Positions 37,957 to 52,839 of a stretch of 64,000 nt of DNA are shown in pieces. This DNA comes from an uncultured Bacteroidia bacterium (lineage in GTDB: Bacteria; Bacteroidota; Bacteroidia; Palsa-948): the NCBI GenBank assembly GCA_964481195.1, contig CAYZTB010000009.1, positions 11,047 through 75,046 on the forward strand. The letters run 5' to 3'. Under the pieces are notes generated by a model, which was given only the letters and a program-made list of their open reading frames with translations, did not search any database and had not been told where the DNA came from. Position 1 is the stretch's first letter. Each line of letters starts with the position of its first letter. Position numbers and translations under genes: made by a program.

Positions 37957-38079
37957 TTAAATTTAAACTTAGGCAAATTAAGTAATAATAAAGGAAATTA
38001 GGAAATTCATCAATTACCTTATTATACAGGTAAGATGCAAAATAGAAGGGATAAGTTGCAGCAAGAAAAGCCAAAAAAC

Positions 38080-39477
38080 CTAATAACCAAGCGTTTTTAG
38101 CATCGATTTGTAGGTTTGCTCTTTAGCAAACAGCTTAGTAGTGACATCCCCGTTTTCATTTCTATCAATTAAAACGTGTTTGGGCGATGGTATCAAACAA
38201 TGTTGTATGCCTCCATATCCTGCAATGGATTCCTGATAAGCACCGGTATGAAAAAAACCTATATAAAGCGGACCTTCTGTTGCATTTCCAATTTTTGGTA
38301 AAAACACTTGTTCGGAATGTGCCTCTGTATTGTAATAGTCTAATCCATCGCAGGTCATGCCACCCAAATTTACTCTATGACTTTCTTTTTCCCAATGATT
38401 CACAGCAAGTAAAATAAATTTTTGTCCAATCGCCCAAGTGTCTGGTAACGTGGTAATGAATGAAGAGTCTATCATGTACCAAAGTTCTCTGTCGTTTTGT
38501 TGCTTTTGATCGCAAACCGAATAGAGGGCAGCCCCGCTTTCGCCAACGGTAAATGAACCAAACTCAGTAAAAATGTTTGGCTCTTTAATTTTATTTTGCT
38601 TGCAGAAAGTTTTTATCTGCGAAACTATTTCTTCAATAATGTATTCGTAGTCGTATTCAAAACCTAGCGAAGTGCGAATAGGGAGTCCGCCTCCAATGTT
38701 TAAGGAATCTAATTCCGGACAAATTCTTTTTAACTCAGCATAAACGTTTAGGCATTTAGCAAGTTCCGTCCAATAATAAATAGTGTCTTTAATGCCGGCA
38801 CTCACAAAAAAGTGAAGCATTTTTAGCTCTAGCTTTTTATTCTTCTTGATTCTAGCTTTGTAAAAGGGAACAATTTCTTTGTAACGGATTCCTAGTCTGG
38901 AAGTGTAATAATCATAAGTTGGTTCTTCTTCAGATGCAATTCGAATGCCGAGTTTACATTTTCCTTTTACGTAGCGCTTGTAATATTCCAGTTCGTTTTT
39001 GTTGTCTAAAATTGGAATTACATTTTTGTATCCGTTATTGATAAGTTCAACAATAAATTGCGGGTAGGGCTTGCGCTTGTACCCGTTACAAATCACGAAA
39101 GTGTTCTTATCAATTTTCCCTTGTCTGTATAGTTCTTTAATAATTGGAATGTCAAATGCCGAAGATGTTTCTAGGTGCGAACCATTTTTAATAGCCTCGT
39201 CCATAACAAAAGAAAAATGAGAGCTCTTGGTGCAATAACAATAAGTATAATTACCTTTGTAATCGGCTTTAGCCATAGCAACATTAAAAAGTTTTTTTGC
39301 TTTTTGAATTTGTTGTCCGATCTTTGGAATGTATGTTATTTTGAGAGGTGTGCCGTATTGTTTGATGATATCCATTAATGGAACATCGTTAAAATGTAAT
39401 TCGCCATCAACAACATTAAATCCTTCTTGAGGAAAATGGAATGTTTGCTGAATTAAATCGCGATATTTATTTTTCAT
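38080..39477 (-). CDS. speA: Arginine decarboxylase (PLP-dependent Orn/DAP/Arg decarboxylase family)
   Basis: YCYCTKSSHF, CNGYK, LNIGGG, TEFGSFTVGESG, TCDGLDYY, GAYQE. Start MKNKY (39477). Confidence 0.82.
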   Translation of the reverse strand: MKNKYRDLIQQTFHFPQEGFNVVDGELHFNDVPLMDIIKQYGTPLKITYIPKIGQQIQKAKKLFNVAMAKADYKGNYTYCYCTKSSHFSFVMDEAIKNGSHLETSSAFDIPIIKELYRQGKIDKNTFVICNGYKRKPYPQFIVELINNGYKNVIPILDNKNELEYYKRYVKGKCKLGIRIASEEEPTYDYYTSRLGIRYKEIVPFYKARIKKNKKLELKMLHFFVSAGIKDTIYYWTELAKCLNVYAELKRICPELDSLNIGGGLPIRTSLGFEYDYEYIIEEIVSQIKTFCKQNKIKEPNIFTEFGSFTVGESGAALYSVCDQKQQNDRELWYMIDSSFITTLPDTWAIGQKFILLAVNHWEKESHRVNLGGMTCDGLDYYNTEAHSEQVFLPKIGNATEGPLYIGFFHTGAYQESIAGYGGIQHCLIPSPKHVLIDRNENGDVTTKLFAKEQTYKSMLKTLGY

Positions 39478-39599
39478 AGAAGTACAATACAAGATTAATG
39501 TGCGCTAAGTTGGGAATAATTTGTGAAAGTAAGTGACTTACATGTGATTTTTTTTGACAATGTAAGTGAGTTGGATTTTGTTAAATAATAAGTTAGAAC

Positions 39600-40553
39600 A
39601 TGAAAAAGATTAAAATCATTGAAGTTAAGTCCGAGCTTGGGGCCGGAACCCGCGGGGCGGGCATGGGGGTAGATGCCGTACGTGTAGCTGCGCTAGATTT
39701 TGGCAGTTCTTTTTTTAGAAGAAATGAATCGGTAGAAGTGCCCAATGATAATAAGCTATTGATGGAGCCGGTAAGCAACGATTATGCTAAACGTATTAAA
39801 AGTGTTTTTTCTTTTAGCGAACGATTGGCTAATCAGGTTTGTGCGTTTAGCAAAGAAGAAGGAGTAGTGCCTATTGTCATTGCAGGCGATCATTCCTCTG
39901 CGATAGGTGTCGCATCGGGCATTAAGATGGCACATCCCGATAAAAGATTAGGTATTATTTGGATTGATGCTCATGCAGACCTTCATTCGCCTTTTACTTC
40001 CCCTTCGGGAAATATGCATGGCATGCCCATTGCTGCAATTATTGACGAGGATAATTTGGAAAACCAAATCAACAAACCCAATGAAGAAACTATTGAATAT
40101 TGGAATAAGATAAAGAACATTGGAGGGATTCATCCAAAGGTTCATCCAAAAGATATTGTAATGGTTTCGGTGCGGGACTTTGAAAGACAGGAAGAATATT
40201 TGTTGAAAAAACACAACATCAAAACCATATCGGTCAATGAAATTCGTAACCGAGGCGTAGAGCGCGTTGCAGCATTAATGTTAAGCACGCTAGATAGTTG
40301 TGATATTATTTATATCTCGTTTGATGTAGATAGTATGGACCCTTCCATATCCCGAGGTACAGGCACCCCCGTACCCGATGGACTCACAGAAAAAGAAGCA
40401 GGTAATCTCATTTACTACTTAATGCGTAGCCGAAAAATTTGCTGCCTTGAAATGGTGGAGATTAACCCAACGCTTGATAAAGAAAACAGAATGGCAGAAA
40501 ATGCTTTTGAAATTTTACTAAAAGCAACCAATCAATTGATAAATGATTTTTAA
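39600..40553 (+). CDS. Arginase (ureohydrolase family)
   Basis: GDHS, WIDAHADLH, SPSGNMHGMP, SFDVDSMDP, GTGTPV, EINP. Confidence 0.88.
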   Translation: MKKIKIIEVKSELGAGTRGAGMGVDAVRVAALDFGSSFFRRNESVEVPNDNKLLMEPVSNDYAKRIKSVFSFSERLANQVCAFSKEEGVVPIVIAGDHSSAIGVASGIKMAHPDKRLGIIWIDAHADLHSPFTSPSGNMHGMPIAAIIDEDNLENQINKPNEETIEYWNKIKNIGGIHPKVHPKDIVMVSVRDFERQEEYLLKKHNIKTISVNEIRNRGVERVAALMLSTLDSCDIIYISFDVDSMDPSISRGTGTPVPDGLTEKEAGNLIYYLMRSRKICCLEMVEINPTLDKENRMAENAFEILLKATNQLINDF

Positions 40554-40572
40554 TTTTTGTTTAATTTAGATT

Positions 40573-42396
40573 ATGAATATTCAGGAAATAGTAGCAGGTA
40601 AAGTTGTTGAGGCGATTCACAGACTATACGGACAAGCTTTACAGCCTGAGCAGATTACATTTAATAAAACCAAGCCCGAGTTTGAGGGCGATATTACTTT
40701 GCTAGTATTTCCACTTACCAAAGCATCTAAAAAATCACCCGAAGAAACGGCAAATGCCATAGGAGATTTTTTGAAAGAGCACCTTGCTGAAGTGGCTGCA
40801 TTTAATGTGGTGAAAGGATTTCTAAATTTGGTTATTCTGGATTCCTATTGGGTAGATTATTTGGCTGTAGCAAATCCTAATTCCCAAATCCTAATTCCCA
40901 ATTCCGAAACTGTAATGGTTGAATTTTCATCTCCCAATACAAACAAGCCTTTGCATTTAGGACATGTGCGTAATAATTTATTGGGTATGGCAGTTTCTAA
41001 TATTTTAAAAGCTGCAGGAAAAAAAGTAATTCGAGTAAATCTAGTTAATGATCGTGGAATACATATTTGTAAGTCAATGCTAGCTTGGCAAAAATGGGGC
41101 AATGGCGAAACGCCAGAATCAAGTGGTATGAAAGGTGATCACTTGGTTGGGAAGTATTATGTAGAGTACGATAAAGAATTGAAAAAAGAAAAGGCGGTTC
41201 ACCCCAACCCTCCCGATGGGAGGGAGGTTGAGCATGCAGGCGCTCCCCCTTTGGGGGAGTTGGAGGGGGCTGTACAGGAAATGCTTCGCAAATGGGAATC
41301 TGGAGATTCTGAAACTCTCGCCCTCTGGAAAAAGATGAACGGCTGGGTATATGATGGCTTTGCTAAAACATATAAAGAGCTTGGAGTAGAATTTGAAAAA
41401 ACTTATTACGAGTCGGAGACTTATTTGCTCGGTAAAAAAATAGTGGATGAAGGATTAAGTAAGGGTGTATTTTTTAAGAAGGAGGATGGTTCAATCTGGA
41501 TAGACCTTACCAAAGATGGGCTGGACGAAAAGCTGTTGCTTCGTTCGGATGGCACTTCGGTTTATATGACGCAGGATTTAGGTACCGCTGTTGAACGCAT
41601 GAAAGAGTTCAATGTAAATAAAATGATTTATGTAGTAGGAAACGAGCAGGACTACCATTTTAAAGTTTTATTCCACATTATTAAAAAATTATCAGCTGCC
41701 GGAATAATTGGCTCTGGCTCTTCCTCCTTTGGGGGAAGCGGGGATGGAGGTGGCTTCTTTCACCTTTCCTACGGCATGGTGGATCTTCCATCGGGTAAAA
41801 TGAAATCGCGCGAAGGGACGGTGGTAGATGCTGATGAGTTGATGGAAGACATGGTTAAAAATGCAATGGAAACAACAAAGGAATTGGGCAAGACCGAAGG
41901 AATGAGTACTGAAGAAGCAGATGCGCTGTACAAAAATATTGGTATGGGAGCGTTAAAATATTTCATCCTTAAGGTAGATGCAAAAAAGAGAATGCTCTTT
42001 GATCCTAAAGAGTCCATTGATTTTAATGGCAACACAGGTCCATTTTTACAATACACCTATGCGCGTATAAAATCTATTTTAAGAAAAGCAGAAGAGTTCA
42101 AAAGCGAAAAGAAACCCCCAACTGTTATTCTTCCAAGTGAAAAAAATATAATTCGTCTTTTACATGATTTACCTAAAGCAATATCTGAAGCAGCTGAAAC
42201 GTATAACCCGGGTCACATAGCTAATTACACGTTCGACTTAGCAAAAGCATACAATCATTTTTATCATGAAGTGCCCATTCTTAAAGCGGAAAATTCAGTT
42301 GAGAAAAGTTTCAGACTAAAGTTGTCACAAAAAACGGCTGAAACCATAAAGCTATGTTTGGCTTTACTTGGAATAAATGTTTCGGAAAGAATGTAA
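40573..42396 (+). CDS. argS: Arginine--tRNA ligase carrying repeat-derived in-frame segments
   Basis: SSPNTNKPLHLGH (HIGH motif), KMKSREG, GNTGPFLQYTYARI, terminal ERM. Confidence 0.97.
   Translation: MNIQEIVAGKVVEAIHRLYGQALQPEQITFNKTKPEFEGDITLLVFPLTKASKKSPEETANAIGDFLKEHLAEVAAFNVVKGFLNLVILDSYWVDYLAVANPNSQILIPNSETVMVEFSSPNTNKPLHLGHVRNNLLGMAVSNILKAAGKKVIRVNLVNDRGIHICKSMLAWQKWGNGETPESSGMKGDHLVGKYYVEYDKELKKEKAVHPNPPDGREVEHAGAPPLGELEGAVQEMLRKWESGDSETLALWKKMNGWVYDGFAKTYKELGVEFEKTYYESETYLLGKKIVDEGLSKGVFFKKEDGSIWIDLTKDGLDEKLLLRSDGTSVYMTQDLGTAVERMKEFNVNKMIYVVGNEQDYHFKVLFHIIKKLSAAGIIGSGSSSFGGSGDGGGFFHLSYGMVDLPSGKMKSREGTVVDADELMEDMVKNAMETTKELGKTEGMSTEEADALYKNIGMGALKYFILKVDAKKRMLFDPKESIDFNGNTGPFLQYTYARIKSILRKAEEFKSEKKPPTVILPSEKNIIRLLHDLPKAISEAAETYNPGHIANYTFDLAKAYNHFYHEVPILKAENSVEKSFRLKLSQKTAETIKLCLALLGINVSERM
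40872..40906 (+). repeat. Heptamer tandem array inside argS
   Basis: AAATCCT AATTCCC AAATCCT AATTCCC AATTCCG, encoding NPNSQILIPNS. Confidence 0.8.
41198..41270. repeat. Inverted doublet of REP-like palindromes inside argS
   Basis: CCCTCCC-GAT-GGGAGGG (41208-41224) and CTCCCCC-TTT-GGGGGAG (41243-41259), with outward C-rich and G-rich tails. Confidence 0.8.
41720..41750 (+). repeat. Single REP-like palindrome inside argS
   Basis: CTTCCTCC-TTT-GGGGGAAG plus tail CGGGGATGGAGG. Confidence 0.75.
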
Positions 42397-42428
42397 ATGA
42401 CGCAATTGAAAGGAGCGTCAGAAAATAA

Positions 42429-42881
42429 TTAGTCTTTTATTCCAATCAATAATACAAAACAGCCCTTTTGGTTTGGCTCTGTAGCTGCCGGAATTTCAAA
42501 CTCTATATAGTAAGTTCCTGTAGCAACGGGTTTGAAGTTAAAAACAAAATCTCCCTTTTTTCCACTCTCGTCAAAGTAAAGGAGCTTCTTGTCTTTTTTG
42601 CTTGGATGTTTGTCATAGATGACGATGCCAACTTCTTGAGGTAAGGCAGTTTTCCCAAAAACTAATTTGTAATCTTCGTCAGAGTACACTGTAAATTCTA
42701 ATATTTCTTTTCGTGCTGTTTTGTTGTAATTAATTTCTTTCAATGCATACGCATCGTAAGAGTATGGTTTTAAAAGTGGCATGCAGTTTTTTACAATTGG
42801 CTTTACTTTGCACTGAGCGGAAAGCACAGTAGTAAATAAGCTAAATATGCCAAGAAGAAAAGTAAATATAATTTTATGCAT
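42429..42881 (-). CDS. Uncharacterised secreted protein (paralog of 19865-20308)
   Basis: Signal peptide ending LSA-QC; C-terminal GCFVLLIGIK. Confidence 0.75.
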   Translation of the reverse strand: MHKIIFTFLLGIFSLFTTVLSAQCKVKPIVKNCMPLLKPYSYDAYALKEINYNKTARKEILEFTVYSDEDYKLVFGKTALPQEVGIVIYDKHPSKKDKKLLYFDESGKKGDFVFNFKPVATGTYYIEFEIPAATEPNQKGCFVLLIGIKD

Positions 42882-42900
42882 ATGCTGTTGCTTTTAATAT

Positions 42901-43749
42901 TTAACCAACAATAGATTTTCGTAAATCACGGGTTTTTTCAGTTATTGTTTTTAATTGATTTTGGTCTACTGTTGTAATTCCACTTTCATCTTGAACAGCA
43001 ACACTATCAAAATAGCTTTTTAATTCGCTAATCTTAGAAAACAATTCTTTAAATTCCTCGTCACCCTGAAACTGGGAGGTTACATTCATGAGGCTATTTA
43101 ACACATATTTTTGCTCAGCTACACGTGCAGCCACTTTCTCCTTATTTGATTCTTTGGTGAGTTGAGTAGCTATGTACATGTTTTCAACCCATGCGCCAAT
43201 AAAAATTAGAAGTGTTTGTTTTTCCTTATTGTTGTCTTTCATGAAAATATCCATCTCGCTTTTTAATTCGCACACTACGTTAATCAAAGAATCTTCGTTA
43301 CTTAAATTATTTTTAAAGCGCTTCAAATAATCATCAGCATCAAAAAGGCTGGACATGCCCAGCTCATCTGAAAGGCGCTTGACTGCTTCCATGTAACGAG
43401 AAGCCTCGTGACTCTGTTTGTTTAACACCGTGTAAGCTAAGTCGGCACTGTATATGCCTAGGTTTAAAGTTTTACTGTGAACAGAAGTGTACTTAGAAAC
43501 ATTTTCTGGTGGGTTAGCAATCCCTTCAATATACTTTAGTCCTGTCCTTTTAAATATTTTAGCCATCAGCAATGGAGAAGGCAACGAGTAAAAGAAATCC
43601 TGTGTTGTTTCCGAAATTTGTGCCTCTGCTGAAGTAGAATCCAAATCGCTATTTATGTTTTCATCAATTGAAGCATTGCCGCAAGACGTAGCAGTGATAA
43701 TTACACTAGCTAAGCAAAGATTAGAAATTAGTAGAAAGGATGATTTCAT
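42901..43749 (-). CDS. Uncharacterised all-helical lipoprotein (paralog of 20317-21243)
   Basis: Lipobox ATSC; YSLPSPLL...TLNLGIYSADLAY; promoter TATATTTG on the complement of 43778-43785. Confidence 0.75.
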   Translation of the reverse strand: MKSSFLLISNLCLASVIITATSCGNASIDENINSDLDSTSAEAQISETTQDFFYSLPSPLLMAKIFKRTGLKYIEGIANPPENVSKYTSVHSKTLNLGIYSADLAYTVLNKQSHEASRYMEAVKRLSDELGMSSLFDADDYLKRFKNNLSNEDSLINVVCELKSEMDIFMKDNNKEKQTLLIFIGAWVENMYIATQLTKESNKEKVAARVAEQKYVLNSLMNVTSQFQGDEEFKELFSKISELKSYFDSVAVQDESGITTVDQNQLKTITEKTRDLRKSIVG

Positions 43750-43927
43750 TATTGATTGTAAAAATGAATGTATGTTTCAAATATAAAGAAACAATTTGAA
43801 CGTGCATATATCTATTTCATTTATTCTTATTATTTATTAATATTTGAAGAGGGGTATAATGCGAGTTTTAAAACATTAAACCACCCCCTATTTTAATATT
43901 AAAGGATTTTCTATTAAATTTGCCATC

Positions 43928-45688
43928 ATGCGATTATTCGACATCTTATACCAGTGCCACACTAAATTTCCAAACGAGGAATGTTTAGTGAAAAAAGAAA
44001 ATGGGAAATGGATACCCACCTCTACTAAATCTTTTATCGAACAATCCGAAGAACTCGCTAGCGGACTGTTGGCGCTCGGCCTTCAAAGAGAAGATAAAAT
44101 TGCTATTCTTTCAAACAACCGGCCAGAGTGGAATATATGCGACATGGCAGTTCAGATGAGTGGTTGTGTGCTGATTCCAGTCTACCCTACGATTAGCGAA
44201 AAGGACCTTACTTTTATATTTAACGATTCTCAGGTCAAGTATGTTTTTGTTTCCTCAGAAGATATTTATAAAAAAGTAACATCTGTTTTAACGGATTCTA
44301 CTTCAGTAAAAGAGATTTTTTCATTTAATGAAATCACATCTGTAAAAAGCTGGAAAGAAGTTCGAGCGCTAGGCAAATCAGCAAATAACAATTTGAGTTT
44401 AGAGAAAATGAAAGCCTCTATACAGGATTCTGACTTGGCAACTATATTGTATACTTCCGGCACTACAGGCACTCCCAAGGGTGTAATGCTTTCGCACGAC
44501 AATATTTTTTCAAACGTACACGCAGTTCGAAATTTACCACCGGCTGGGTATGGAGATAAGGCGTTAAGCTTTCTTCCTTTAAATCATATTTACGAGCGGA
44601 TGTTAGTATACATGTATTTGTATTTGGGCATTTCAGTTTACTATGCCGAAAGCTTAGAAACGATAGGCGATAATCTTAGAGAAGTAAAACCTCAGATCTT
44701 CACCTGTGTACCAAGACTGTTAGAAAAAGTATATGACAAAATTGTATCCAAAGGCAACGAGCTTGCTGGAATTAAAAGAACATTATTTTTTTGGGCCTTG
44801 GCGCTGGGCGAAAAATTTAACGGAGCGGAAAATCATGGTATATGGTATAGTTTGCAATTACGTTTAGCTAACAAGCTAATATTTTCTAAGTGGAGAGAAG
44901 CATTGGGAGGCAACGTGCGTGCTGCAGTTTCGGGTGGTGCTGCTTTAAATCCTCGTTTAGCAAGAATCTTTTGGAGTGCACAAATTCCGGTTTTAGAAGG
45001 ATATGGCTTAACTGAAACTTCGCCTGTAATTGCAGTAAATACGCTGGAGCCAAACGGAATGCGATTTGGTACAGTTGGAGAAGTCATAGAGCGTGTTAAA
45101 GTTAAAATTGCAGAAGATGGAGAAATTCTGTGCAAAGGTCCAAACGTGATGCTAGGATATTATAAACATCCAGATGCTACTGCCGAAGTAATTGATTCGG
45201 ATGGATGGTTTCATACAGGTGATATTGGAATACTTCAAGATGGAAAATATTTAAAAATTACCGACCGTAAAAAAGAAATATTTAAAACATCGGGAGGAAA
45301 ATACATTGCTCCTCAAATGATTGAAAATAAATTGATAGAGATACCTTTAGTAGAGCAAGTAATGGTAATAGGGGAGAATCAGAAATTTGCTTCGGTCTTA
45401 ATTGTGCCTTCCTTTTTAAAAATAAAAGAATCGTACGCAAAACAAGGAAAAGCATACCCAGGAAACGAAGAAGTAATTAAAGATGTGGACATTATTAAAA
45501 TAATAAAAGAAGGCATTGAAAAAGTAAATAGCAGTCTTGCTAGCTACGAAACTATTAAGAAGATAGAGTTGCTTCCCAAAGATTGGACTATTGATAATGG
45601 TGAGTTAACACCTAAAATGTCATTGAAGCGCAAAGTGATTCTAGAAGCGAACAAGCATTTATTGGCTAAGATTTACGCTGATAAATAG
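43928..45688 (+). CDS. Long-chain fatty acid--CoA ligase
   Basis: YTSGTTGTPKG, EGYGLTET, WFHTGDIG, ITDRKK, LTPKMSLKR. Confidence 0.93.
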   Translation: MRLFDILYQCHTKFPNEECLVKKENGKWIPTSTKSFIEQSEELASGLLALGLQREDKIAILSNNRPEWNICDMAVQMSGCVLIPVYPTISEKDLTFIFNDSQVKYVFVSSEDIYKKVTSVLTDSTSVKEIFSFNEITSVKSWKEVRALGKSANNNLSLEKMKASIQDSDLATILYTSGTTGTPKGVMLSHDNIFSNVHAVRNLPPAGYGDKALSFLPLNHIYERMLVYMYLYLGISVYYAESLETIGDNLREVKPQIFTCVPRLLEKVYDKIVSKGNELAGIKRTLFFWALALGEKFNGAENHGIWYSLQLRLANKLIFSKWREALGGNVRAAVSGGAALNPRLARIFWSAQIPVLEGYGLTETSPVIAVNTLEPNGMRFGTVGEVIERVKVKIAEDGEILCKGPNVMLGYYKHPDATAEVIDSDGWFHTGDIGILQDGKYLKITDRKKEIFKTSGGKYIAPQMIENKLIEIPLVEQVMVIGENQKFASVLIVPSFLKIKESYAKQGKAYPGNEEVIKDVDIIKIIKEGIEKVNSSLASYETIKKIELLPKDWTIDNGELTPKMSLKRKVILEANKHLLAKIYADK

Positions 45689-45790
45689 GCAGATTTTTCA
45701 TTTGTTTGTCTTTTTGGTTTCCTTATTCCTGTTACCTTTATTAACTGATATTGACAAACAACATTATTCGATTATTTATACTTTGTTATT

Positions 45791-48163
45791 ATGAAACGAT
45801 CAATTAAAAAAGTTGCTGTGCTTGGCTCAGGCGTAATGGGTTCTCGTATTGCTTGTCATTTTGCAAATATTGGAGTAGAGGTATTACTTCTCGATATTGT
45901 CCCAAAAGATGCCGCGGCAGATAAAAAATCTCGCAATAAAATTGTGAACGATGCATTAACTTTTGCGTTGAAGTCAAACCCTTCGCCAATTTATCAAAAG
46001 TCGTTTGCAAATAGAATTACAACAGGCAATTTTGAGGACGATATGGAAAATATCGCGACTTGCGATTGGATTATTGAAGTAGTTGTGGAAAGATTAGATA
46101 TTAAGAAAATTGTTTTTGATCAGGTAGAAAAATTTAGAAAACAGGGAACGCTTATTACATCCAACACCTCAGGCATTCCAATTAATTTAATGCTGGAAGG
46201 AAGAAGCGAAGATTTTCAAACACATTTTTGTGGTTCTCACTTTTTTAATCCACCTCGATATTTGAAGTTGTTGGAAATTATTCCTACTTCTAAAACTTCA
46301 AAAGAAGTAGTGGGCTTTTTAATGCATTATGGAGATTTGTATCTAGGAAAAACCACGGTGCTTTGTAAAGATACGCCTGCTTTTATTGCAAACCGTATTG
46401 GAGTATATGGCATTATGGCATTGTTTCATCTGGTGCAAAAAATGGAACTTACCGTTGAAGAAGTTGATAAACTTACTGGCCCGGTTTTAGGAAGGCCAAA
46501 GTCTGCTACGTTTCGTACCTGTGATGTAGTTGGACTAGATACGTTAGTGCATGTTGCAAACGGTTTAGCATCAAATCTTCCCAACGATGAGGCAAAAGAT
46601 TTATTTAAACTTCCTGCCTATGTGCAGAAGATGGTCGACAATAAATGGCTGGGCTCTAAAACAGAGCAAGGATTTTTCAAAAAAGTAAAAGGGGCGAAGG
46701 GAAGTGAGATTCATGCTTTGGATTTTAAATCGCTGGAGTATAAACTAGTACAGAAAGTAAAATTTGCTACGCTCGAATTAACAAAACCTATTGATGATTT
46801 AAAAGCAAGATTAAAAGTTTTAATTACCGGCAAAGATAAAGCAGGAGATTTTTACCGTGCCTCTTTCTTTGGGTTGTTTCAATATGTTTCCAATCGTATT
46901 CCGGAAATATCGGACGAGCTTTACAAAATTGATGATGCCATGAAAGCCGGTTTTGGCTGGGAGCTAGGGCCCTTTGAATATTGGGATGCGTTGGGAGTAA
47001 AAGAAACAGTTGCTTACATGGAAAAAGCAGGGCAAAAACCTGCGCAGTGGATTTATGATTTTATTGCTTCGGGTAAAACATCATTTTACGCAATAGAAAA
47101 AAACGCTAGAAATTATTACGACATCCCTACTAAATCATACAAATTAGTGCCGGGTACAGAAGAATATATTTCGCTGGAAATAATTCGCCCTACAAAAACA
47201 GTTTGGAAAAATTCGGGTGCTACCTTAACTGATATTGGAGACGGAATCGTGAATTTAGAGTGGAACACCAAGATGAATTCTATCGGTGGCGAAGTGATTC
47301 AAGGCATTAATACTTCAATCGAAATTGCTGAGAAGGATTTTCAAGGGTTAGTAATTTCTAACGAAGGAGCAAACTTTTCAGCAGGTGCAAACGTGGGAAT
47401 GATATTTATGTTTGCAGTAGAACAGGAATGGGATGAGCTTAACATGGCTATTAAGTTGTTCCAAAACACCATGATGCATATTCGCTATTCTTCAGTTCCA
47501 GTTGTTGTTGCGCCTCATAACCTAGCGTTAGGTGGAGCTTGTGAAATGAGCATGCATTCTGATAAAGTAATAGCACACGCAGAAACGTATATGGGCTTGG
47601 TTGAGTTTGGCGTAGGTTTAATTCCGGGTGGCGGAGGAACAAAAGAGTTTGCAGTCCGCCTTTCCGATGGTTTGCAAGATGGAGATATCGAGCTGAATAA
47701 TTTCCGTGACCGATTTTTAACAATAGGACAAGCAAAAGTTTCTACTTCTGCTAATGAAGCTTTTGGTTTAGGTTATTTACGAAAAGGAAAAGATTTAGTA
47801 GTGGTATCAAGAGCAAGATTGCTTGGCGATGCAAAAGCAGCCTGTTTAGATTTAGCAAAAGAGGGGTACAGCAAACCTGTACCAAGAAAAGATATTCGTG
47901 TTTTAGGAAAGCAAGCACTAGGACTGGCTTACTTAGGCGCTAACTCCATGCTCAGCGGACATTATATTTCAGAACACGATGTGAAAATATCTCAGAAGCT
48001 AGCCCACGTATTATGTGGAGGAGAACTATCTGCACCCACACTAGTTAGTGAACAATATTTACTCGATTTAGAGCGCGAAGCATTTTTAAGTTTGTGCGGT
48101 GAAAAGAAAACATTGGAAAGAATCCAATCTATATTAACAGGAGGAAAAGTATTGAGAAATTAG
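45791..48163 (+). CDS. 3-hydroxyacyl-CoA dehydrogenase / enoyl-CoA hydratase (FadN type)
   Basis: VLGSGVMG, SNTSGI, HFFNPPRY; C-terminal crotonase domain ALGGACE...GLVEFGVGLIPGGGG. Confidence 0.93.
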   Translation: MKRSIKKVAVLGSGVMGSRIACHFANIGVEVLLLDIVPKDAAADKKSRNKIVNDALTFALKSNPSPIYQKSFANRITTGNFEDDMENIATCDWIIEVVVERLDIKKIVFDQVEKFRKQGTLITSNTSGIPINLMLEGRSEDFQTHFCGSHFFNPPRYLKLLEIIPTSKTSKEVVGFLMHYGDLYLGKTTVLCKDTPAFIANRIGVYGIMALFHLVQKMELTVEEVDKLTGPVLGRPKSATFRTCDVVGLDTLVHVANGLASNLPNDEAKDLFKLPAYVQKMVDNKWLGSKTEQGFFKKVKGAKGSEIHALDFKSLEYKLVQKVKFATLELTKPIDDLKARLKVLITGKDKAGDFYRASFFGLFQYVSNRIPEISDELYKIDDAMKAGFGWELGPFEYWDALGVKETVAYMEKAGQKPAQWIYDFIASGKTSFYAIEKNARNYYDIPTKSYKLVPGTEEYISLEIIRPTKTVWKNSGATLTDIGDGIVNLEWNTKMNSIGGEVIQGINTSIEIAEKDFQGLVISNEGANFSAGANVGMIFMFAVEQEWDELNMAIKLFQNTMMHIRYSSVPVVVAPHNLALGGACEMSMHSDKVIAHAETYMGLVEFGVGLIPGGGGTKEFAVRLSDGLQDGDIELNNFRDRFLTIGQAKVSTSANEAFGLGYLRKGKDLVVVSRARLLGDAKAACLDLAKEGYSKPVPRKDIRVLGKQALGLAYLGANSMLSGHYISEHDVKISQKLAHVLCGGELSAPTLVSEQYLLDLEREAFLSLCGEKKTLERIQSILTGGKVLRN

Positions 48164-48164
48164 A

Positions 48165-48605
48165 GATTGAAGATTATTGATTTTAGATTACATGAATGCT
48201 GAAGAGTTAAAAAAACGAACGAAGCAATTTGCGCATAACTGTGTTGGTTTTTCAATGAAATTGCCACATGTTTACCTAGGGAATCATATTAAGGGACAGT
48301 TAATTAGATGCTCTACTTCAGTGGCTGCCAATTACAGAGCAGCATGTCGAGCGCAAACGAAGCCCAATTTTATGGATAAGCTTAGAATAGCCATAGAAGA
48401 AGCGGACGAATCAAATTTTTGGCTTGAATTTATTAAAGATGAGAAATTATTAGCTGAAAGTGATGTAAAAAATTTACTGCAAGAATCAGATGAGTTGGTT
48501 GCAATATTTGTTTCATCAAGAAAAACTGCTTCCAGTCAAAATTAATTGAAAAATAGATATTAATGTATTTAATCAAAAATCGTTATTCATAAATCTTAAA
48601 TTATA
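48165..48605. repeat. Inverted heptamer arrays flanking the four-helix-bundle gene
   Basis: Upstream GATTGAA GATTATT GATTTTA GATTACA (48165-48192); downstream AATCAAA AATCGTT ATTCATA AATCTTA AATTATA (48571-48605). Confidence 0.7.
48192..48545 (+). CDS. Four helix bundle protein (23S rRNA-IVP / Avd-like family)
   Basis: QLIRCSTSVAANYRAACRA...IAIEEADESNFWLE. Start reassigned to ATG 48192. Confidence 0.9.
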   Translation: MNAEELKKRTKQFAHNCVGFSMKLPHVYLGNHIKGQLIRCSTSVAANYRAACRAQTKPNFMDKLRIAIEEADESNFWLEFIKDEKLLAESDVKNLLQESDELVAIFVSSRKTASSQN

Positions 48606-49813
48606 TGAACGCATATATAGTATCAGCATTTCGTTCTGCAGTTGGCAAGGCCGGCCGCGGAGGTTTCAGATTTACTCGTCCGGATGATATTGCATCGGAT
48701 GTTATTAAACATTTAATGGCATCGGTGCCAAACGTGGCAGCCGAACAAGTTGATGATTTAATTGTGGGTAATGCCATGCCAGAAGCCGAGCAGGGCCTAA
48801 ACATGGGAAGACTAATTTCTTTGCTCGCATTTAATACAGATAAAGTTCCAGGTATGACAGTAAATAGATATTGTGCGTCTGGATTAGAAACGATTGCCAT
48901 AGCTAGTGCAAAAATTAATTCCGGTCAGGCTGAATGTATTATTGCAGGTGGAGTAGAAAGCATGAGCTTGATTCCGATGGGTGGTTGGAGAATAGTTCCT
49001 AATTACGAGGTTGCTAAAGTACATCCGGATTATTACTGGGGCATGGGACTTACTGCCGAAGCAGTTGCAAATGAATACAAAGTTTCGCGTGAGGATCAAG
49101 ATAAATTTTCTCTTAATTCTCATTTAAAAGCTATTGCAGCTATCAAAGAAGGAAAATTTAAAGATGAGATTGTGCCGATTAAGATTATGGAGACTTATTA
49201 TGAAGAAGCTGTTGACTCCTCCCCTTCGGGGAGGACGGGTGGGGCCAAAAAAACTAGGGAGTTTATTGTCGACACCGATGAAGGGCCACGTGCTGATACA
49301 AATATTGAAGCACTCGCAAAATTAAAACCTGTATTTGATGCAAGGGGTACAGTTACAGCCGGCAACTCTTCACAAACTAGCGATGGAGCAGCTTTTGTAA
49401 TGGTTGTAAGCGAGAAGTTTATGAAAGAAAATAAACTTACTCCCATTGCACGATTAGTCTCTTTTGCAGCAGCAGGAGTTCCTCCGCGTATTATGGGAAT
49501 AGGTCCTATTGCAGCTATACCAAAAGCATTAAAATTAGCAGGATTAAAACAAGACCAAATCGATTTAATAGAGTTGAACGAAGCCTTTGCTTCGCAATCA
49601 TTAGCAGTAGTGCGCGAGTTAAAGCTAAACCCTGAAATAATAAATGTTAATGGAGGTGCGATATCTTTAGGGCATCCACTTGGTTGCAGTGGAGCTAAAT
49701 TATCCGTTCAAATATTTAACGAGCTAAAAAGACGTAAGAAAAAATATGGCATGGTTACCATGTGTGTAGGAACCGGACAAGGAGCTGCTGGAATTTTTGA
49801 AATGATAAATTAA
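48605..49813 (+). CDS. fadA: Acetyl-CoA C-acyltransferase (thiolase)
   Basis: NRYCASGL, NEAFA, GGAISLGHPLG, MCVGTGQG. Confidence 0.93.
   Translation: MNAYIVSAFRSAVGKAGRGGFRFTRPDDIASDVIKHLMASVPNVAAEQVDDLIVGNAMPEAEQGLNMGRLISLLAFNTDKVPGMTVNRYCASGLETIAIASAKINSGQAECIIAGGVESMSLIPMGGWRIVPNYEVAKVHPDYYWGMGLTAEAVANEYKVSREDQDKFSLNSHLKAIAAIKEGKFKDEIVPIKIMETYYEEAVDSSPSGRTGGAKKTREFIVDTDEGPRADTNIEALAKLKPVFDARGTVTAGNSSQTSDGAAFVMVVSEKFMKENKLTPIARLVSFAAAGVPPRIMGIGPIAAIPKALKLAGLKQDQIDLIELNEAFASQSLAVVRELKLNPEIINVNGGAISLGHPLGCSGAKLSVQIFNELKRRKKKYGMVTMCVGTGQGAAGIFEMIN
49217..49246 (+). repeat. REP-like palindrome inside the thiolase gene
   Basis: TCCTCCCC-TTC-GGGGAGGA plus tail CGGGTGGGGCC, encoding SSPSGRTGGA. 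Confidence 0.8.
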
Positions 49814-49816
49814 ATC

Positions 49817-50731
49817 TTACAGAAAAATCCCAAAGCCAAGCAAAATAATTAAAGCAACAAAACTAATTAAAAGGGCAATTTTAATGAACTTCTGCGTGTT
49901 GGTTTGTTCAGCTTTTTTCTTGTGTTTTGTATAGGTGGAATCATCCTGATCGTAATCTCCTTTTTTAGGCTTTAGCATTCCGTTTTTAATACGGATAAGA
50001 TCAATAAAAAATAAAACAAAAAAACCTCCTAAGGTTAACATTTCCAGAATTCCTATTTCGGTGTATCCTAAATAAAAACGATGCGCTCCAAAAATTCCTA
50101 AAAATCCTGCCAGCAAAAAAGCTTTTCGTTTTGTGATAATTCTTTCTTTTTTTTGTTTTTGGTCAGATTCGTTAGATAGGGCAGTATCCCTGTACTTAGT
50201 AAAAAGCAGTAACGCAAAAATCCATATTCCAATAATGGCAAAGGGGGTTAGAATAAAAAATGTATTGGCAGCCCACAGTATATTGCTAAGTGAAAACAGG
50301 CCGTAGAAAAGTGCAGTAAGTACGGAGCCTACTGCTATTAGCAACAGCATTTTTACATCAGATGGAGTTTTTTCATTGTCCAAAGTTTTTTTCTTTTTTA
50401 CTTTGGGCAGTGCTTGTGTTTTATGTGTTCGCTCTGTTTTAGGTTTGAGATTTTTCTCATGTAAGCCTGATACTTTGTATTCTAATTGTAATTCTTTAAT
50501 GTTTTGAATTGTATTTGGAGCAGGGGCTTCGGGAACTGCCGAGGCCGAAGCGTCTTCCTGTATTAAAGACTCGGAATAAAATTTAGGAGTTTGTTTTACT
50601 GCGCTATGACTTTTTATTTTTTCAACCGATGAATTATAATATCCACTTCGATAAAGCCTCTTTTCAAAGTTGCAGGAATGCAAAAGCAATATTGCTAATA
50701 ATACAGCAGACGATTTTAAAATATATTTCAT
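49817..50731 (-). CDS. TM2-domain membrane lipoprotein
   Basis: Lipobox LHSC; AFLLAGFLGIFGAHRFYLG...LTLGG; additional TM helices. Confidence 0.8.
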   Translation of the reverse strand: MKYILKSSAVLLAILLLHSCNFEKRLYRSGYYNSSVEKIKSHSAVKQTPKFYSESLIQEDASASAVPEAPAPNTIQNIKELQLEYKVSGLHEKNLKPKTERTHKTQALPKVKKKKTLDNEKTPSDVKMLLLIAVGSVLTALFYGLFSLSNILWAANTFFILTPFAIIGIWIFALLLFTKYRDTALSNESDQKQKKERIITKRKAFLLAGFLGIFGAHRFYLGYTEIGILEMLTLGGFFVLFFIDLIRIKNGMLKPKKGDYDQDDSTYTKHKKKAEQTNTQKFIKIALLISFVALIILLGFGIFL

Positions 50732-50805
50732 GTATTATTTAGAATAGCCAAAAGTCGAAAAAATCGCGATACATTCAACCAGATAATATTCCAAAAGCAA
50801 ATTAA

Positions 50806-50887
50806 GCCATTAATTTGCACTAATTAACACCAATTTATCTTTCATTTGTCTCTGCCTGTTTCGTGTAAATTCGTGTTAATTAGTGGC
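50806..50887. repeat. Miniature inverted-repeat element built from 10-nt subunits
   Basis: GCCATTAATTTGCACTAATTAACACCAA (50806-50833) versus TTCGTGTAAATTCGTGTTAATTAGTGGC (50860-50887): 22/28 complementary. Confidence 0.75.
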
Positions 50888-51013
50888 GTTTTTGTTCATC
50901 AATCATTTGTATAGCGTGCTTAAAAAATAGTACAACAATAGTTTCAGTTTTTGTAGCTACAATAAAATGTACTTGTTCTTGAATACAACCCTAAAATAGC
51001 ATCAAAAAAATAG

Positions 51014-51021
51014 TAACTTTG
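51014..51021 (+). promoter_or_regulatory. -7 promoter element TAACTTTG
   Basis: Matches TAnnTTTG, 24 nt upstream of the acyl-CoA dehydrogenase start. Confidence 0.55.
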
Positions 51022-51045
51022 AATTAAACAAATACCATCCAATTT

Positions 51046-52839
51046 ATGTCTACCGAAACTAAATCAGCAGCTATTAAAGGCGGAGAATTTCTTATTAAAG
51101 ATACCGAGGCAAATGATATTTTTATTCCTGAGCAGTGGAACGAGGAGCAATTGATGATTGCACAATCGTGTACAGATTTTTTGGCACAAGAAGTTTGGCC
51201 TAACTTGGAAAAGATTGATAATCAGGAGGAAGGACTTATGGTTAAGCTTTTAGATAAAGCAGCAGAACTTGGACTGCTTGGGTTAAGTGTTCCTGAAGAA
51301 TTTGGTGGATTTGAAAAAGATTTTGTTACAGGCATGTTAGCTACCGAAAAATTGGGAGCTGGATATTCATTTGCAGTTTCCATTTCTGCACATACGGGTA
51401 TTGGAACATTACCAATTTTATATTATGGTAACGAAGCACAAAAGAAAAAATATATTCCGAATTTAGCGAATGGTAAATGGAAAGCTTGTTATTGTTTAAC
51501 AGAACCTAGCAGTGGATCGGACGCCAACTCTGGAAAAACCAAAGCGGTATTAACTCCCGATGGCAAGCATTATATTTTAAACGGACAAAAGATGTGGATT
51601 ACCAACGGTGGCTTTGCTGAAATATTTACGGTGTTTGCAAAAATTGATAACGATGAAAATCTTTCCGCATTTATCGTAGAGAAAAGCTTTGGTGGCATTA
51701 CGCTAAATCCGGAAGAGCATAAAATGGGTATCAAGGGATCTTCTACTCGTCAAGTATTTTTTAACGACTGTAAAGTTCCTATAGAAAATTTATTAAGCGA
51801 AAGACAAAGTGGATTTAAAATCGCTGTAAACATTTTAAACATTGGAAGAGTAAAATTAGCTGCTGCCGCACTGGGCGCTTCCAAAAAAGTTTCTGAGCAG
51901 TCAATTCAATATGCAAATGAGCGCAACCAGTTTGGCAGACCTATCTCTAAATACGGTGCTATTCGTTATAAATTAGCTGAACAGGCAATCCGCATTTATG
52001 CAACGGAAGCTGCGCTGTATCGTGCTACACAAAATATTGAAGATGCCATGAATGCACTTGCTGCAGGAGGCATGGAGCATGGTAAAGCATTATTAAAGGG
52101 AGTAGAACAATTTGCTCCCGAAGCTGCGATTTTAAAAGTTGCAGGTAGCGAAGTGTTGGATTATGTAGTAGATGAAGGCGTACAGATTTATGGTGGAATG
52201 GGTTATTCGGCCGATGCACCGATGGACAGAGCATACCGCGATTCTCGTATCAACAGAATATTTGAAGGTACTAATGAGATAAACAGAATGTTGATTGTGG
52301 ATATGATGCTTAAGCGCGCCATGAAAGGTGAATTAGATTTGATGGGGCCTGCAACTAAAGTAGCAAGTGAGCTTATGAGCATTCCAGATTTTGGTGCGGA
52401 GGATACGGCTCTGTTTTCGGCAGAGAAAAAATATTTGAAAAATTTTAAGAAAGCAATACTGATGACAGCCGGCAGCGCAGCACAAAAATTAATGATGGAG
52501 CTTGCCAAAGAACAAGAAGTGTTAATGAATATTGCAGATATGCTTATTGACCTTTACCTATCGGAATCTGTTTTATTAAGAGTAGAAAAATTAGTTGGTA
52601 TGCGTGGAGAAGATGCGTGCAAAGAGCAAATTGATATTATGCGCGTATATATAAATGATGCTGCTGATCGCATTAATAAAAATGGAAAAGAGGCGATAAC
52701 TTCTTTTGCGCAAGGCGATGAGCAGCGCATGATGCTGATGGGGTTAAAACGATTTACTAAAACGGAACCTTTTAATGCAAAGGATGCCAGAAGAAGAGTG
52801 GCAGCGAAGTTGATTTTAGAAGGGAAGTACTGCTACTAA
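51046..52839 (+). CDS. Acyl-CoA dehydrogenase
   Basis: CLTEPSSGSD, LNGQKMWITNG, EHKMGIKGSST, QIYGGMGY, RIFEGTNEI. Confidence 0.95.
   Translation: MSTETKSAAIKGGEFLIKDTEANDIFIPEQWNEEQLMIAQSCTDFLAQEVWPNLEKIDNQEEGLMVKLLDKAAELGLLGLSVPEEFGGFEKDFVTGMLATEKLGAGYSFAVSISAHTGIGTLPILYYGNEAQKKKYIPNLANGKWKACYCLTEPSSGSDANSGKTKAVLTPDGKHYILNGQKMWITNGGFAEIFTVFAKIDNDENLSAFIVEKSFGGITLNPEEHKMGIKGSSTRQVFFNDCKVPIENLLSERQSGFKIAVNILNIGRVKLAAAALGASKKVSEQSIQYANERNQFGRPISKYGAIRYKLAEQAIRIYATEAALYRATQNIEDAMNALAAGGMEHGKALLKGVEQFAPEAAILKVAGSEVLDYVVDEGVQIYGGMGYSADAPMDRAYRDSRINRIFEGTNEINRMLIVDMMLKRAMKGELDLMGPATKVASELMSIPDFGAEDTALFSAEKKYLKNFKKAILMTAGSAAQKLMMELAKEQEVLMNIADMLIDLYLSESVLLRVEKLVGMRGEDACKEQIDIMRVYINDAADRINKNGKEAITSFAQGDEQRMMLMGLKRFTKTEPFNAKDARRRVAAKLILEGKYCY

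Follow-up and report, generated by a model that had tools for sequence, protein, structure and literature searches.

Three-block units in the ArgRS and thiolase genes

The 64-kb stretch of contig CAYZTB010000009.1 analyzed here (the window), from an uncultured Bacteroidia bacterium, carries four copies of a short GC-rich palindromic unit inside two enzyme genes. Three units lie in the arginyl-tRNA synthetase (ArgRS) gene (positions 40573-42396, plus strand; Pfam PF00750, PF05746 and PF03485), orthologs of which were present in all 21 genomes searched. The fourth lies in a thiolase gene (48605-49813, plus strand; PF00108 and PF02803). A sequence-only reading of the window had described four related units, in frame twice in ArgRS and once in thiolase. 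The exact strings were found in their places, both hosts were identified by Pfam, and the peptides that it quoted are present in the translations.

At the first ArgRS site, two units form a doublet with tails outward (41198-41270) that encodes residues 210-233 (HPNPPDGREVEHAGAPPLGELEGA). The left unit (41198-41224) is on the minus strand, and thus in R orientation on the plus strand, and reads CCCTCCC-ATC-GGGAGGG-TT-GGGGTGAA. Its third block is partly decayed, with mirror matches at 5 of 7 positions. The right unit (41243-41270, plus strand) is in F orientation and reads CTCCCCC-TTT-GGGGGAG-TTG-GAGGGGG; neither its hairpin nor its mirror third block has a mismatch. The 18-nt spacer between them (41225-41242) resembles those of other doublets in the genome in length and form. 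The second ArgRS site holds a solo unit in F orientation (41720-41750, plus strand; CTTCCTCC-TTT-GGGGGAAG-C-GGGGATGGAGG), which has one stem mismatch and encodes approximately residues 383-393, directly before the HLSYGMV..GKMKSR segment. The thiolase unit, also solo and F-oriented (49217-49246, plus strand; TCCTCCCC-TTC-GGGGAGGA-C-GGGTGGGG), encodes SSPSGRTGGA, and its blocks can alternatively be divided as (T)CCTCCCC-TTC-GGGGAGG(A)-CG-GGTGGGG. No further unit copies were detected in the window at the thresholds used, and an Rfam gathering search of positions 38000-52000 returned 0 matches, i.e., no known RNA family.

A dispersed repeat family with a mirror-ordered third block

The assembly totals 3.19 Mb in 113 contigs, with 36.7% GC. 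A hairpin scan detected 48 perfect 7-bp GC-rich hairpins genome-wide, three of them in the window, and 88 when one stem mismatch was allowed. The 5′ arm is all-pyrimidine in 40 of the 48 perfect hairpins; the other eight are of mixed sequence, and several of these are followed by T-runs like terminators. A search for the three-block pattern recovered 101 units, compared with 2, 1 and 2 in three genomes shuffled in 60-nt blocks. The proposal of a dispersed, DNA-level repeat family is thus upheld, and the motif does have other copies in the genome, about 100 in all.

Each unit comprises a pyrimidine arm, a loop, a purine arm, a short linker and a G-rich third block; in the four units of the window the loop is 3 nt long and the linker 1-6 nt. 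The third block is a mirror image of the purine arm in which A stays as it is or becomes T. For example, CTCCCCC/GGGGGAG is followed by GAGGGGG, CCTCCCC/GGGGAGG by GG(A/T)GGGG, TCTCCCC/GGGGAGA by AG(A/T)GGGG and CTTCCCC/GGGGAAG by GATGGGG, and a matching tail is carried by each of at least nine arm types. The stem and 3-nt loop recognized by the sequence-only reading stand, and the G-rich tail that it described proves to be a mirror repeat of the purine arm and not a loose tail.

For this test 75 hairpins were oriented solely by which flank is G-rich, and in 47 of them the downstream block perfectly mirrors the unit's own purine arm. When arms were paired with tails taken from units with another arm, 633 of 5052 combinations matched (12.5%). 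Permutation gave a mean of 14.2 (sd 3.1) and at most 25, and none of 5000 runs reached 47; kinship among copies inflates this test, and independent support comes from how many arm types follow the rule. For the tail, a direct-repeat model was rejected: among 57 asymmetric arms it is perfect in 9, compared with 37 for the mirror model, and a second tally gave 8 and 36. Mirror symmetry cannot be produced by template copying, and an antiparallel purine-motif third strand requires it (G·GC, A·AT and T·AT). The covariation is indirect support for the predicted triplex. The units form a DNA-level, structure-constrained repeat.

Ten doublets were found in the genome. All, including the one at the first ArgRS site, have the order R then F (tails outward), and none has the order F then R. 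Units or the beginnings of units also sit within approximately 50 nt of contig ends (C1:7, C64:4, C102:2934, C53:20112, C41:26670, C58:18760 and C23:41551). The repeat probably causes assembly breaks, and the true number of units is likely above 101.

The sequence-only reading had noted that all copies it found in the window are intragenic, which holds for the window but not genome-wide. Counting coding against intergenic copies placed 63 of the 101 units inside open frames of at least 200 aa, 16 near a frame end and 22 in shorter frames. Random 33-nt windows were internal in 72.7% of 4000 draws, and units are mildly depleted from gene interiors. Relative to the host frame, 34 internal units are sense (the pyrimidine-purine-tail strand is coding) and 29 are antisense. 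Stop codons are absent from all six frames in 54 units and from at least four frames in 98.

All 40 unit-bearing frames that were scanned, of approximately 47 distinct ones, have Pfam families. The hosts include IleRS, LeuRS, PheRS-alpha, MutS, DnaG, PriA and the clamp-loader delta' subunit, as well as HisIE, HisF, GatB, MetH, NuoD, NuoH, IspG, HemC/D and urocanase. The LeuRS of this genome (contig C5:80294-83218) has unit-like peptides at two positions apart from the LeuRS site described below, ..SAGSSPDGGGQEGA.. and ..TSPSLGTGDMGGA.., only the first of which was caught by the hairpin scan.

In-frame gain at orthologous sites

We compared the unit-bearing intervals with those of orthologs. 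For the first ArgRS site, 10 loci matched the anchors (GDHLVGKYY to MLRKWE). Five orthologs have an interval of 108 nt and another has 102 nt, compared with 120-123 nt in the four doublet carriers. The 73-nt doublet took the place of approximately 60 nt of native sequence, with a net gain of 12 nt. At the second site, the interval is 45 nt in six orthologs and 72-96 nt in five with a unit, and one more locus is N-masked. The orthologous units at this site have two flank subtypes and vary jointly in all three blocks (CCTTCCC/GGGAAGG/GGATGGG vs CCTCCCC/GGGGAGG/GGTGGGG).

For thiolase, 7 of 14 loci matched the anchors, with an interval of 66 nt in five orthologs and 96 nt in this genome. In the closest relative the interval is 114 nt; the pyrimidine arm is retained and the remainder of the unit is disrupted. 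Across both ArgRS sites, thiolase and the acetyl-CoA synthetase (Acs) site described below, all 15 length differences are multiples of 3. The ArgRS and thiolase segments are thus lineage-specific, and among the orthologs compared none carried the same peptides without the DNA palindromes.

In an ArgRS tree of 10 rows, calculated with the inserts removed and supported at 3 of 7 inner branches only, unit presence is patchy, and one carrier is sister (99/98) to an empty-site species. We also examined an AlphaFold2 model of ArgRS based on an 11-sequence alignment (mean pLDDT 80.2, pTM 0.79). Three segments of this model have pLDDT values under 50: residues 214-226 and 382-393, which are within the two inserts, and residues 404-416, the KMSKS-type loop. 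Residues 214-226 fall between predicted helices 188-209 and 229-242, and both inserts are modelled as coil flanked by well-modelled elements. The segments map to low-confidence loops of the model.

Two other features of ArgRS genes in relatives were noted. A split match at the first ArgRS site of a distant relative was considered as a DUF559 insertion and rejected, as it is actually an unrelated AT-rich insertion of approximately 100 aa. The ArgRS of a relative in another family (contig C53 of that genome, 53300-55700) has an AT-rich insertion of approximately 100 aa at the first site and, near the C-terminus, two short GC-rich inserts encoding LPAGRHG.. and SLPAGQAGASGG, which look like a different small palindromic repeat family.

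Units bracket an in-frame DUF559 gene

The sequence-only reading had suggested looking for a nuclease or transposase gene flanked by the same repeats. Such a nuclease was found, in the form of unit-bracketed open reading frames (ORFs) of the Vsr-like family DUF559 (PF04480, matched at E 1e-28 to 4e-35). This family has six matches genome-wide, three of which are full copies inside long frames, and no match in the K-12 control genome. The full copies are in frame in Acs, in cofactor-independent phosphoglycerate mutase (iPGM) and in a Lactamase_B protein. All three have an R-oriented unit on the left flank. On the right flank, two have an F-oriented unit, and the third ends at the contig end just as the pyrimidine arm starts. 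Small palindromes are nested in some of the bracketing units, one inside the first loop of the left unit on contig C84 (5500-6150) and others, in the right units on contigs C84 and C39, in the stretch that separates the purine arm from the tail. In the Acs copy the inverted-repeat relation reaches approximately 10 nt inward of the hairpins.

In other species of the genus and class, the layout of R unit left and F unit right holds in all five DUF559 copies. Again in frame, three of them split the DHH domain of RecJ (in three species), one is in a family III CoA-transferase and one is at the N-terminus of a pseudouridine synthase. The second ArgRS site of one relative encodes the peptide KVLPFGEDLGG, which many DUF559 elements also have at their right end.

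The Acs site (FQYN|..|EV(F/Y)WCTAD) was followed in 11 of the 20 returned loci. The interval is empty (135 nt) in five species and 636/633 nt in two species with the full element, which itself accounts for 501/498 nt. Four further species have 24-39 extra nt at this site: two of these are clear solo units of opposite orientation, a third is a less clear unit, and in the fourth there is a decayed remnant. In sequence terms, the units and the DUF559 ORF form a single element with inverted ends, and this element and its apparent solo and doublet derivatives occupy conserved genes in frame, with presence that varies among related species.

To see how general the arrangement is, we surveyed one genome per species using a nine-sequence DUF559 alignment, and kept 80 loci of at least 491 confirmed relatives. 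By record title the loci belong to Bacteroidota and several Patescibacteria groups, assignments that are subject to possible mis-binning of short contigs from metagenome-assembled genomes, and some may repeat relatives' loci already examined. Within 160 nt left of DUF559, a unit in R orientation was found in 56 of the 80 loci and one in F orientation in 3. Within 160 nt to the right, the unit is F in 44 and R in 5. Units occur on both flanks in 36 loci and on at least one flank in 64, and control windows 600-760 nt away have none (0/76 and 0/76). In 78 of the 80 loci the copy is inside an open frame of at least 300 aa and continuous with the host frame.

By flanking motifs, 55 of the survey copies are in LeuRS, 6 in Acs, 3 in RecJ, 5 in a putatively Tgt-like gene, labelled by a motif, and 11 elsewhere. 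The LeuRS site lies between ..QRNWIGKSEG.. and ..VFTTRPDT.. and is occupied in both Bacteroidota- and Patescibacteria-titled records. At this site the Pfam-verified LeuRS of our genome is empty, with the motifs uninterrupted. In a quick DUF559 tree, poorly resolved with 33 of 77 inner branches open, host-site labels take 15 changes compared with a shuffled mean of 24.1, and the LeuRS-site and Tgt-like-site copies are intermixed in the Patescibacteria part. Near-identical DUF559 copies in the same host context (branch lengths 0.018 and 0.038) occur in records of a Bacteroidota genus and a Lentisphaerota order, reflecting either recent transfer or mis-binning.

A Vsr-like nuclease fold

The DUF559 ORF is approximately 110-130 aa long. 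Searched against PDB, its profile had a sole match at E<=1, the DUF559 "endonuclease-like protein" 3hrl (E 4e-21). A structural model (pLDDT 85.4) also retrieved 3hrl in Foldseek (E 6e-6), along with the catalytic domain of I-Bth0305I (3r3p; E 4.5e-5, TM 0.65/0.73), a link seen by fold search only, and E. coli Vsr (1vsr; E 0.029). The modelled fold thus matches the Vsr-like PD-(D/E)xK type, like that of a proven homing endonuclease. Residues E66, D68, D70, H72 and D73, in an E-x-D-x-D-x-H-D stretch, are invariant in all nine DUF559 copies and are probably catalytic. Pfam scans of nine host proteins detected no intein, Hint or NUMOD families at E<=1e-5.

The EDxHD family is defined by Vsr-derived catalytic residues and has members in introns, in inteins and as free-standing genes (Taylor et al., 2011, PMC3239194). 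One later paper equates a DUF559 gene with the EDxHD family, and a survey groups Vsr, DUF559 and 3r3p. Similar to EDxHD proteins, and I-Bth0305I in particular, the DUF559 copies combine a Vsr-like fold with the conserved E-x-D-x-D-x-H-D stretch, and like EDxHD homing endonucleases they occupy the same conserved site of an essential gene (LeuRS) across distant taxa. Unlike I-Bth0305I, whose gene lies in a self-splicing group I intron and which carries NUMOD/HTH modules at its N-terminus, the DUF559 ORF lies in the host frame and has triplex-motif inverted ends.

Relationship to known repeats

Earlier work on repeats of the BoxC/PIT type is that of Hoyne and Maher (2000, 2002), as cited by Holder et al. 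(2015). Class II intrastrand triplexes consist of 5′ pyrimidine, purine and reverse-Hoogsteen blocks with short loops, and are represented in E. coli by BoxC, PIT and TMECO, which occur also in other Proteobacteria and in Cyanobacteria (Holder et al., 2015, NAR 43:10126, PMC4666352). According to the same paper, purine-motif triplexes do not form in RNA, and therefore the structure of the units points to the DNA level. TMECO is described there as "always located intergenically" in MG1655 (23/23), and no mobility genes were found near it.

The units share with BoxC/PIT/TMECO the block order, the antiparallel mirror third block, the G/C-rich blocks, the occurrence as solo copies and inverted pairs, a second loop that is often TTA or TTG and the lack of a transposase or integrase nearby. 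In contrast to TMECO, which has a 9-nt CCCTCNCCC consensus, their stems are variable and 7-9 nt long, and most of them are intragenic and read through. The exact TMECO consensus (CCCTCNCCC N3-6 GGGNGAGGG N3 GGGNGAGGG) has 0 matches on both strands of the genome. Also unlike TMECO as described, the units bracket a DUF559 ORF; the words "endonuclease" and "in-frame" are absent from the Holder et al. (2015) text. The units are of the same kind as TMECO and represent a variant within the class II triplex-motif repeats already known, not the E. coli family itself.

Rickettsia palindromic elements (RPEs) are short palindromic repeats that lie in frame in housekeeping genes, are translated and are tolerated in surface loops. 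The likeness of the units to them concerns behavior: the units are inserted in frame in conserved protein genes, with translation suggested by the open frames. RPEs are longer and richer in AT; they lack the third mirror block, and no nuclease ORF is known to be associated with them.

A parallel in organization is offered by miniature inverted-repeat transposable elements (MITEs) and REPINs, in which short non-coding doublets of inverted ends occur alongside a longer, coding element with identical termini. As in a MITE, the units and the coding DUF559 element have terminal inverted repeats in common, and the polarity of the doublets is the same (10 vs 0). The units differ from MITEs and REPINs in that their sites revealed no target-site duplication, in that their coding partner is not a DDE or HUH transposase but a small hydrolytic nuclease, and in that the copies are intragenic and in frame.

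In the open literature, with supplementary files and subscription journals outside the search, we found no report that combines triplex-motif ends around a DUF559 gene in frame with solo and doublet derivatives inside genes, and none that connects these repeats with DUF559 or with in-frame insertion.

Interpretation and alternatives

We think it likely that the units are class II intrastrand-triplex-motif repeats which, in this lineage, serve as the inverted ends of a selfish element of approximately 500 bp that encodes DUF559 in frame, and that those in the window are solo and doublet ends of it. The doublet at the first ArgRS site would be an end-to-end, tails-outward pair without an internal ORF, similar to a MITE, and the solo units at the second ArgRS site and in thiolase would be single element ends. 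The whole element sits in the host gene frame and appears to be translated through, as suggested by the open frames and by length changes in multiples of three. Units persist in essential genes because they are nearly free of stops in all frames, change the net length by a multiple of 3 and lie in, or replace, surface loops. The earlier suggestion of a REP-like selfish element adding loops to essential proteins is therefore kept for the lineage-specific in-frame loops and dropped for the kinship with REPs, given the third mirror block and the likeness to BoxC/PIT/TMECO.

We infer that DUF559 mobilizes the units. The nuclease may cut or nick empty or structured targets, and repair would then copy the element in, as in homing. 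Ectopic repair may now and then seed new sites, and internal deletion would yield the doublets and solo ends. A single-strand triplex or hairpin fold may be needed by the nuclease or at the repair step.

An improbable alternative is that the units are structural DNA signals kept by the host, such as replication or recombination pause sites or instability hot spots, with no dedicated mobilizer and with DUF559 as a passenger. In its favor, the three-way covariation reveals selection on, or constraint by, the fold, the copies in this genome look old, and TMECO sites have been tied to local rearrangement with no transposase nearby (Holder et al., 2015, PMC4666352). Signals of this kind would not be expected in the catalytic domains of at least 40 different enzymes in both orientations. 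Nor do they fit the patchy presence at orthologous codons of close species, the recurrence of end peptides and sequences across unrelated genes and phyla, the strict polarity at DUF559 (left flank, 56 R vs 3 F; right flank, 44 F vs 5 R) or the lack of units in all 152 control windows.

The selected fold might instead be a hairpin/G-quadruplex switch, in which the two G-rich blocks supply four G-tracts and no triplex is involved. The purine arm and tail do contain several G-runs, and similar archaeal and bacterial repeats are described as switching between triplex, hairpin and G-quadruplex in vitro (PMC8044849). What a G-quadruplex needs, however, is G-tracts, not the observed mirroring of the arm by A/T positions of the tail, and the A-to-T change in the tail fits antiparallel purine-motif triads (T·AT) as described by Holder et al. 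(2015, PMC4666352). We regard this switch as unlikely to be the selected structure.

A REPIN/RAYT system, in which a domesticated HUH (Y1) transposase spreads inverted REP doublets, was the link drawn by the sequence-only reading, and it is very improbable here. The genome does have 10 inverted hairpin-unit doublets and does have matches to PF01797 (Y1_Tnp). These four matches are, however, short (frames of 97-151 aa); none has a flanking GC-rich hairpin of the unit type, and the only unit on their contigs is more than 20 kb away. The units moreover have a third mirror block that REPs do not, and the gene that they bracket is DUF559. We rejected the transposase link on this basis. Contig C23 (18357-19585) has two adjacent, opposed and truncated Y1_Tnp (IS200-like) frames, 123 and 76 aa long, that have no relation to the repeat. 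Finally, convergent selection at the protein level for flexible Gly/Pro/Ser-rich linkers is hardly credible: the encoded peptides are indeed G/P/S/E-rich and in loops, but 34 units are sense and 29 antisense to their hosts, the reading frame differs among units, 22 of 101 are in short frames, and a DNA mirror rule has no meaning for a peptide.

Several observations weigh against a DUF559-borne selfish element with triplex-motif ends. No target-site duplication or common target sequence was found when filled and empty sites were compared by eye at four sites (the two ArgRS sites, thiolase and Acs), and the doublet at the first ArgRS site is a replacement and not a simple insertion, unlike classic transposition. 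The three full copies of this genome are 52-66% identical to one another, the Acs copy appears to have been inherited vertically with its host gene (89% vs 85% identity), and by these comparisons there is no sign of recent movement in this genome. In the survey, 16 of the 80 DUF559 loci have no unit at the thresholds used. Homing fits recurrence at one site, as in LeuRS (55/80), and not dozens of distinct sites per genome, and we know of no DUF559 protein that acts on these repeats or on empty sites. To this is added the inflation of the permutation test by kinship. In addition, hairpin energies of individual units, calculated with ViennaRNA as single-strand DNA folding of Watson-Crick hairpins only, are not significant alone compared with same-composition shuffles (z -0.5 to -1.9); the significance of the family is due to recurrence and covariation, not to folding energy.

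Implications

For approximately 30 years, to our knowledge, bacterial intrastrand-triplex repeats have had no function, no mobilizing enzyme and no evolutionary evidence for a triplex in vivo. The three-strand covariation over many arm variants and orthologous sites is evolutionary evidence for the fold, and DUF559 is a candidate partner enzyme. The lifestyle seen here, inside essential genes by being translated, is one not recorded for triplex repeats. In practice the inserts probably break assemblies, and can mislead alignment, domain annotation and structure prediction.

A broader reading, which we offer tentatively as a possibility short of an even chance, is that DUF559 elements represent a class of selfish elements, widespread but so far undescribed, that spread by a homing-type process without intron or intein and carry their nuclease gene in frame. 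Their triplex ends would be at once the DNA structure acted on and translated flexible linkers through which essential enzymes put up with the insert, and the BoxC, PIT and TMECO repeats of E. coli, along with the solo and doublet units of the window, would be decayed or non-autonomous ends. If the link to the nuclease is true, it would provide a third route, besides introns and inteins, by which a homing-type element can live in conserved sites of essential genes, and it would explain many of the lineage-specific Gly/Pro-rich loops in enzymes of uncultured Bacteroidota and Patescibacteria.

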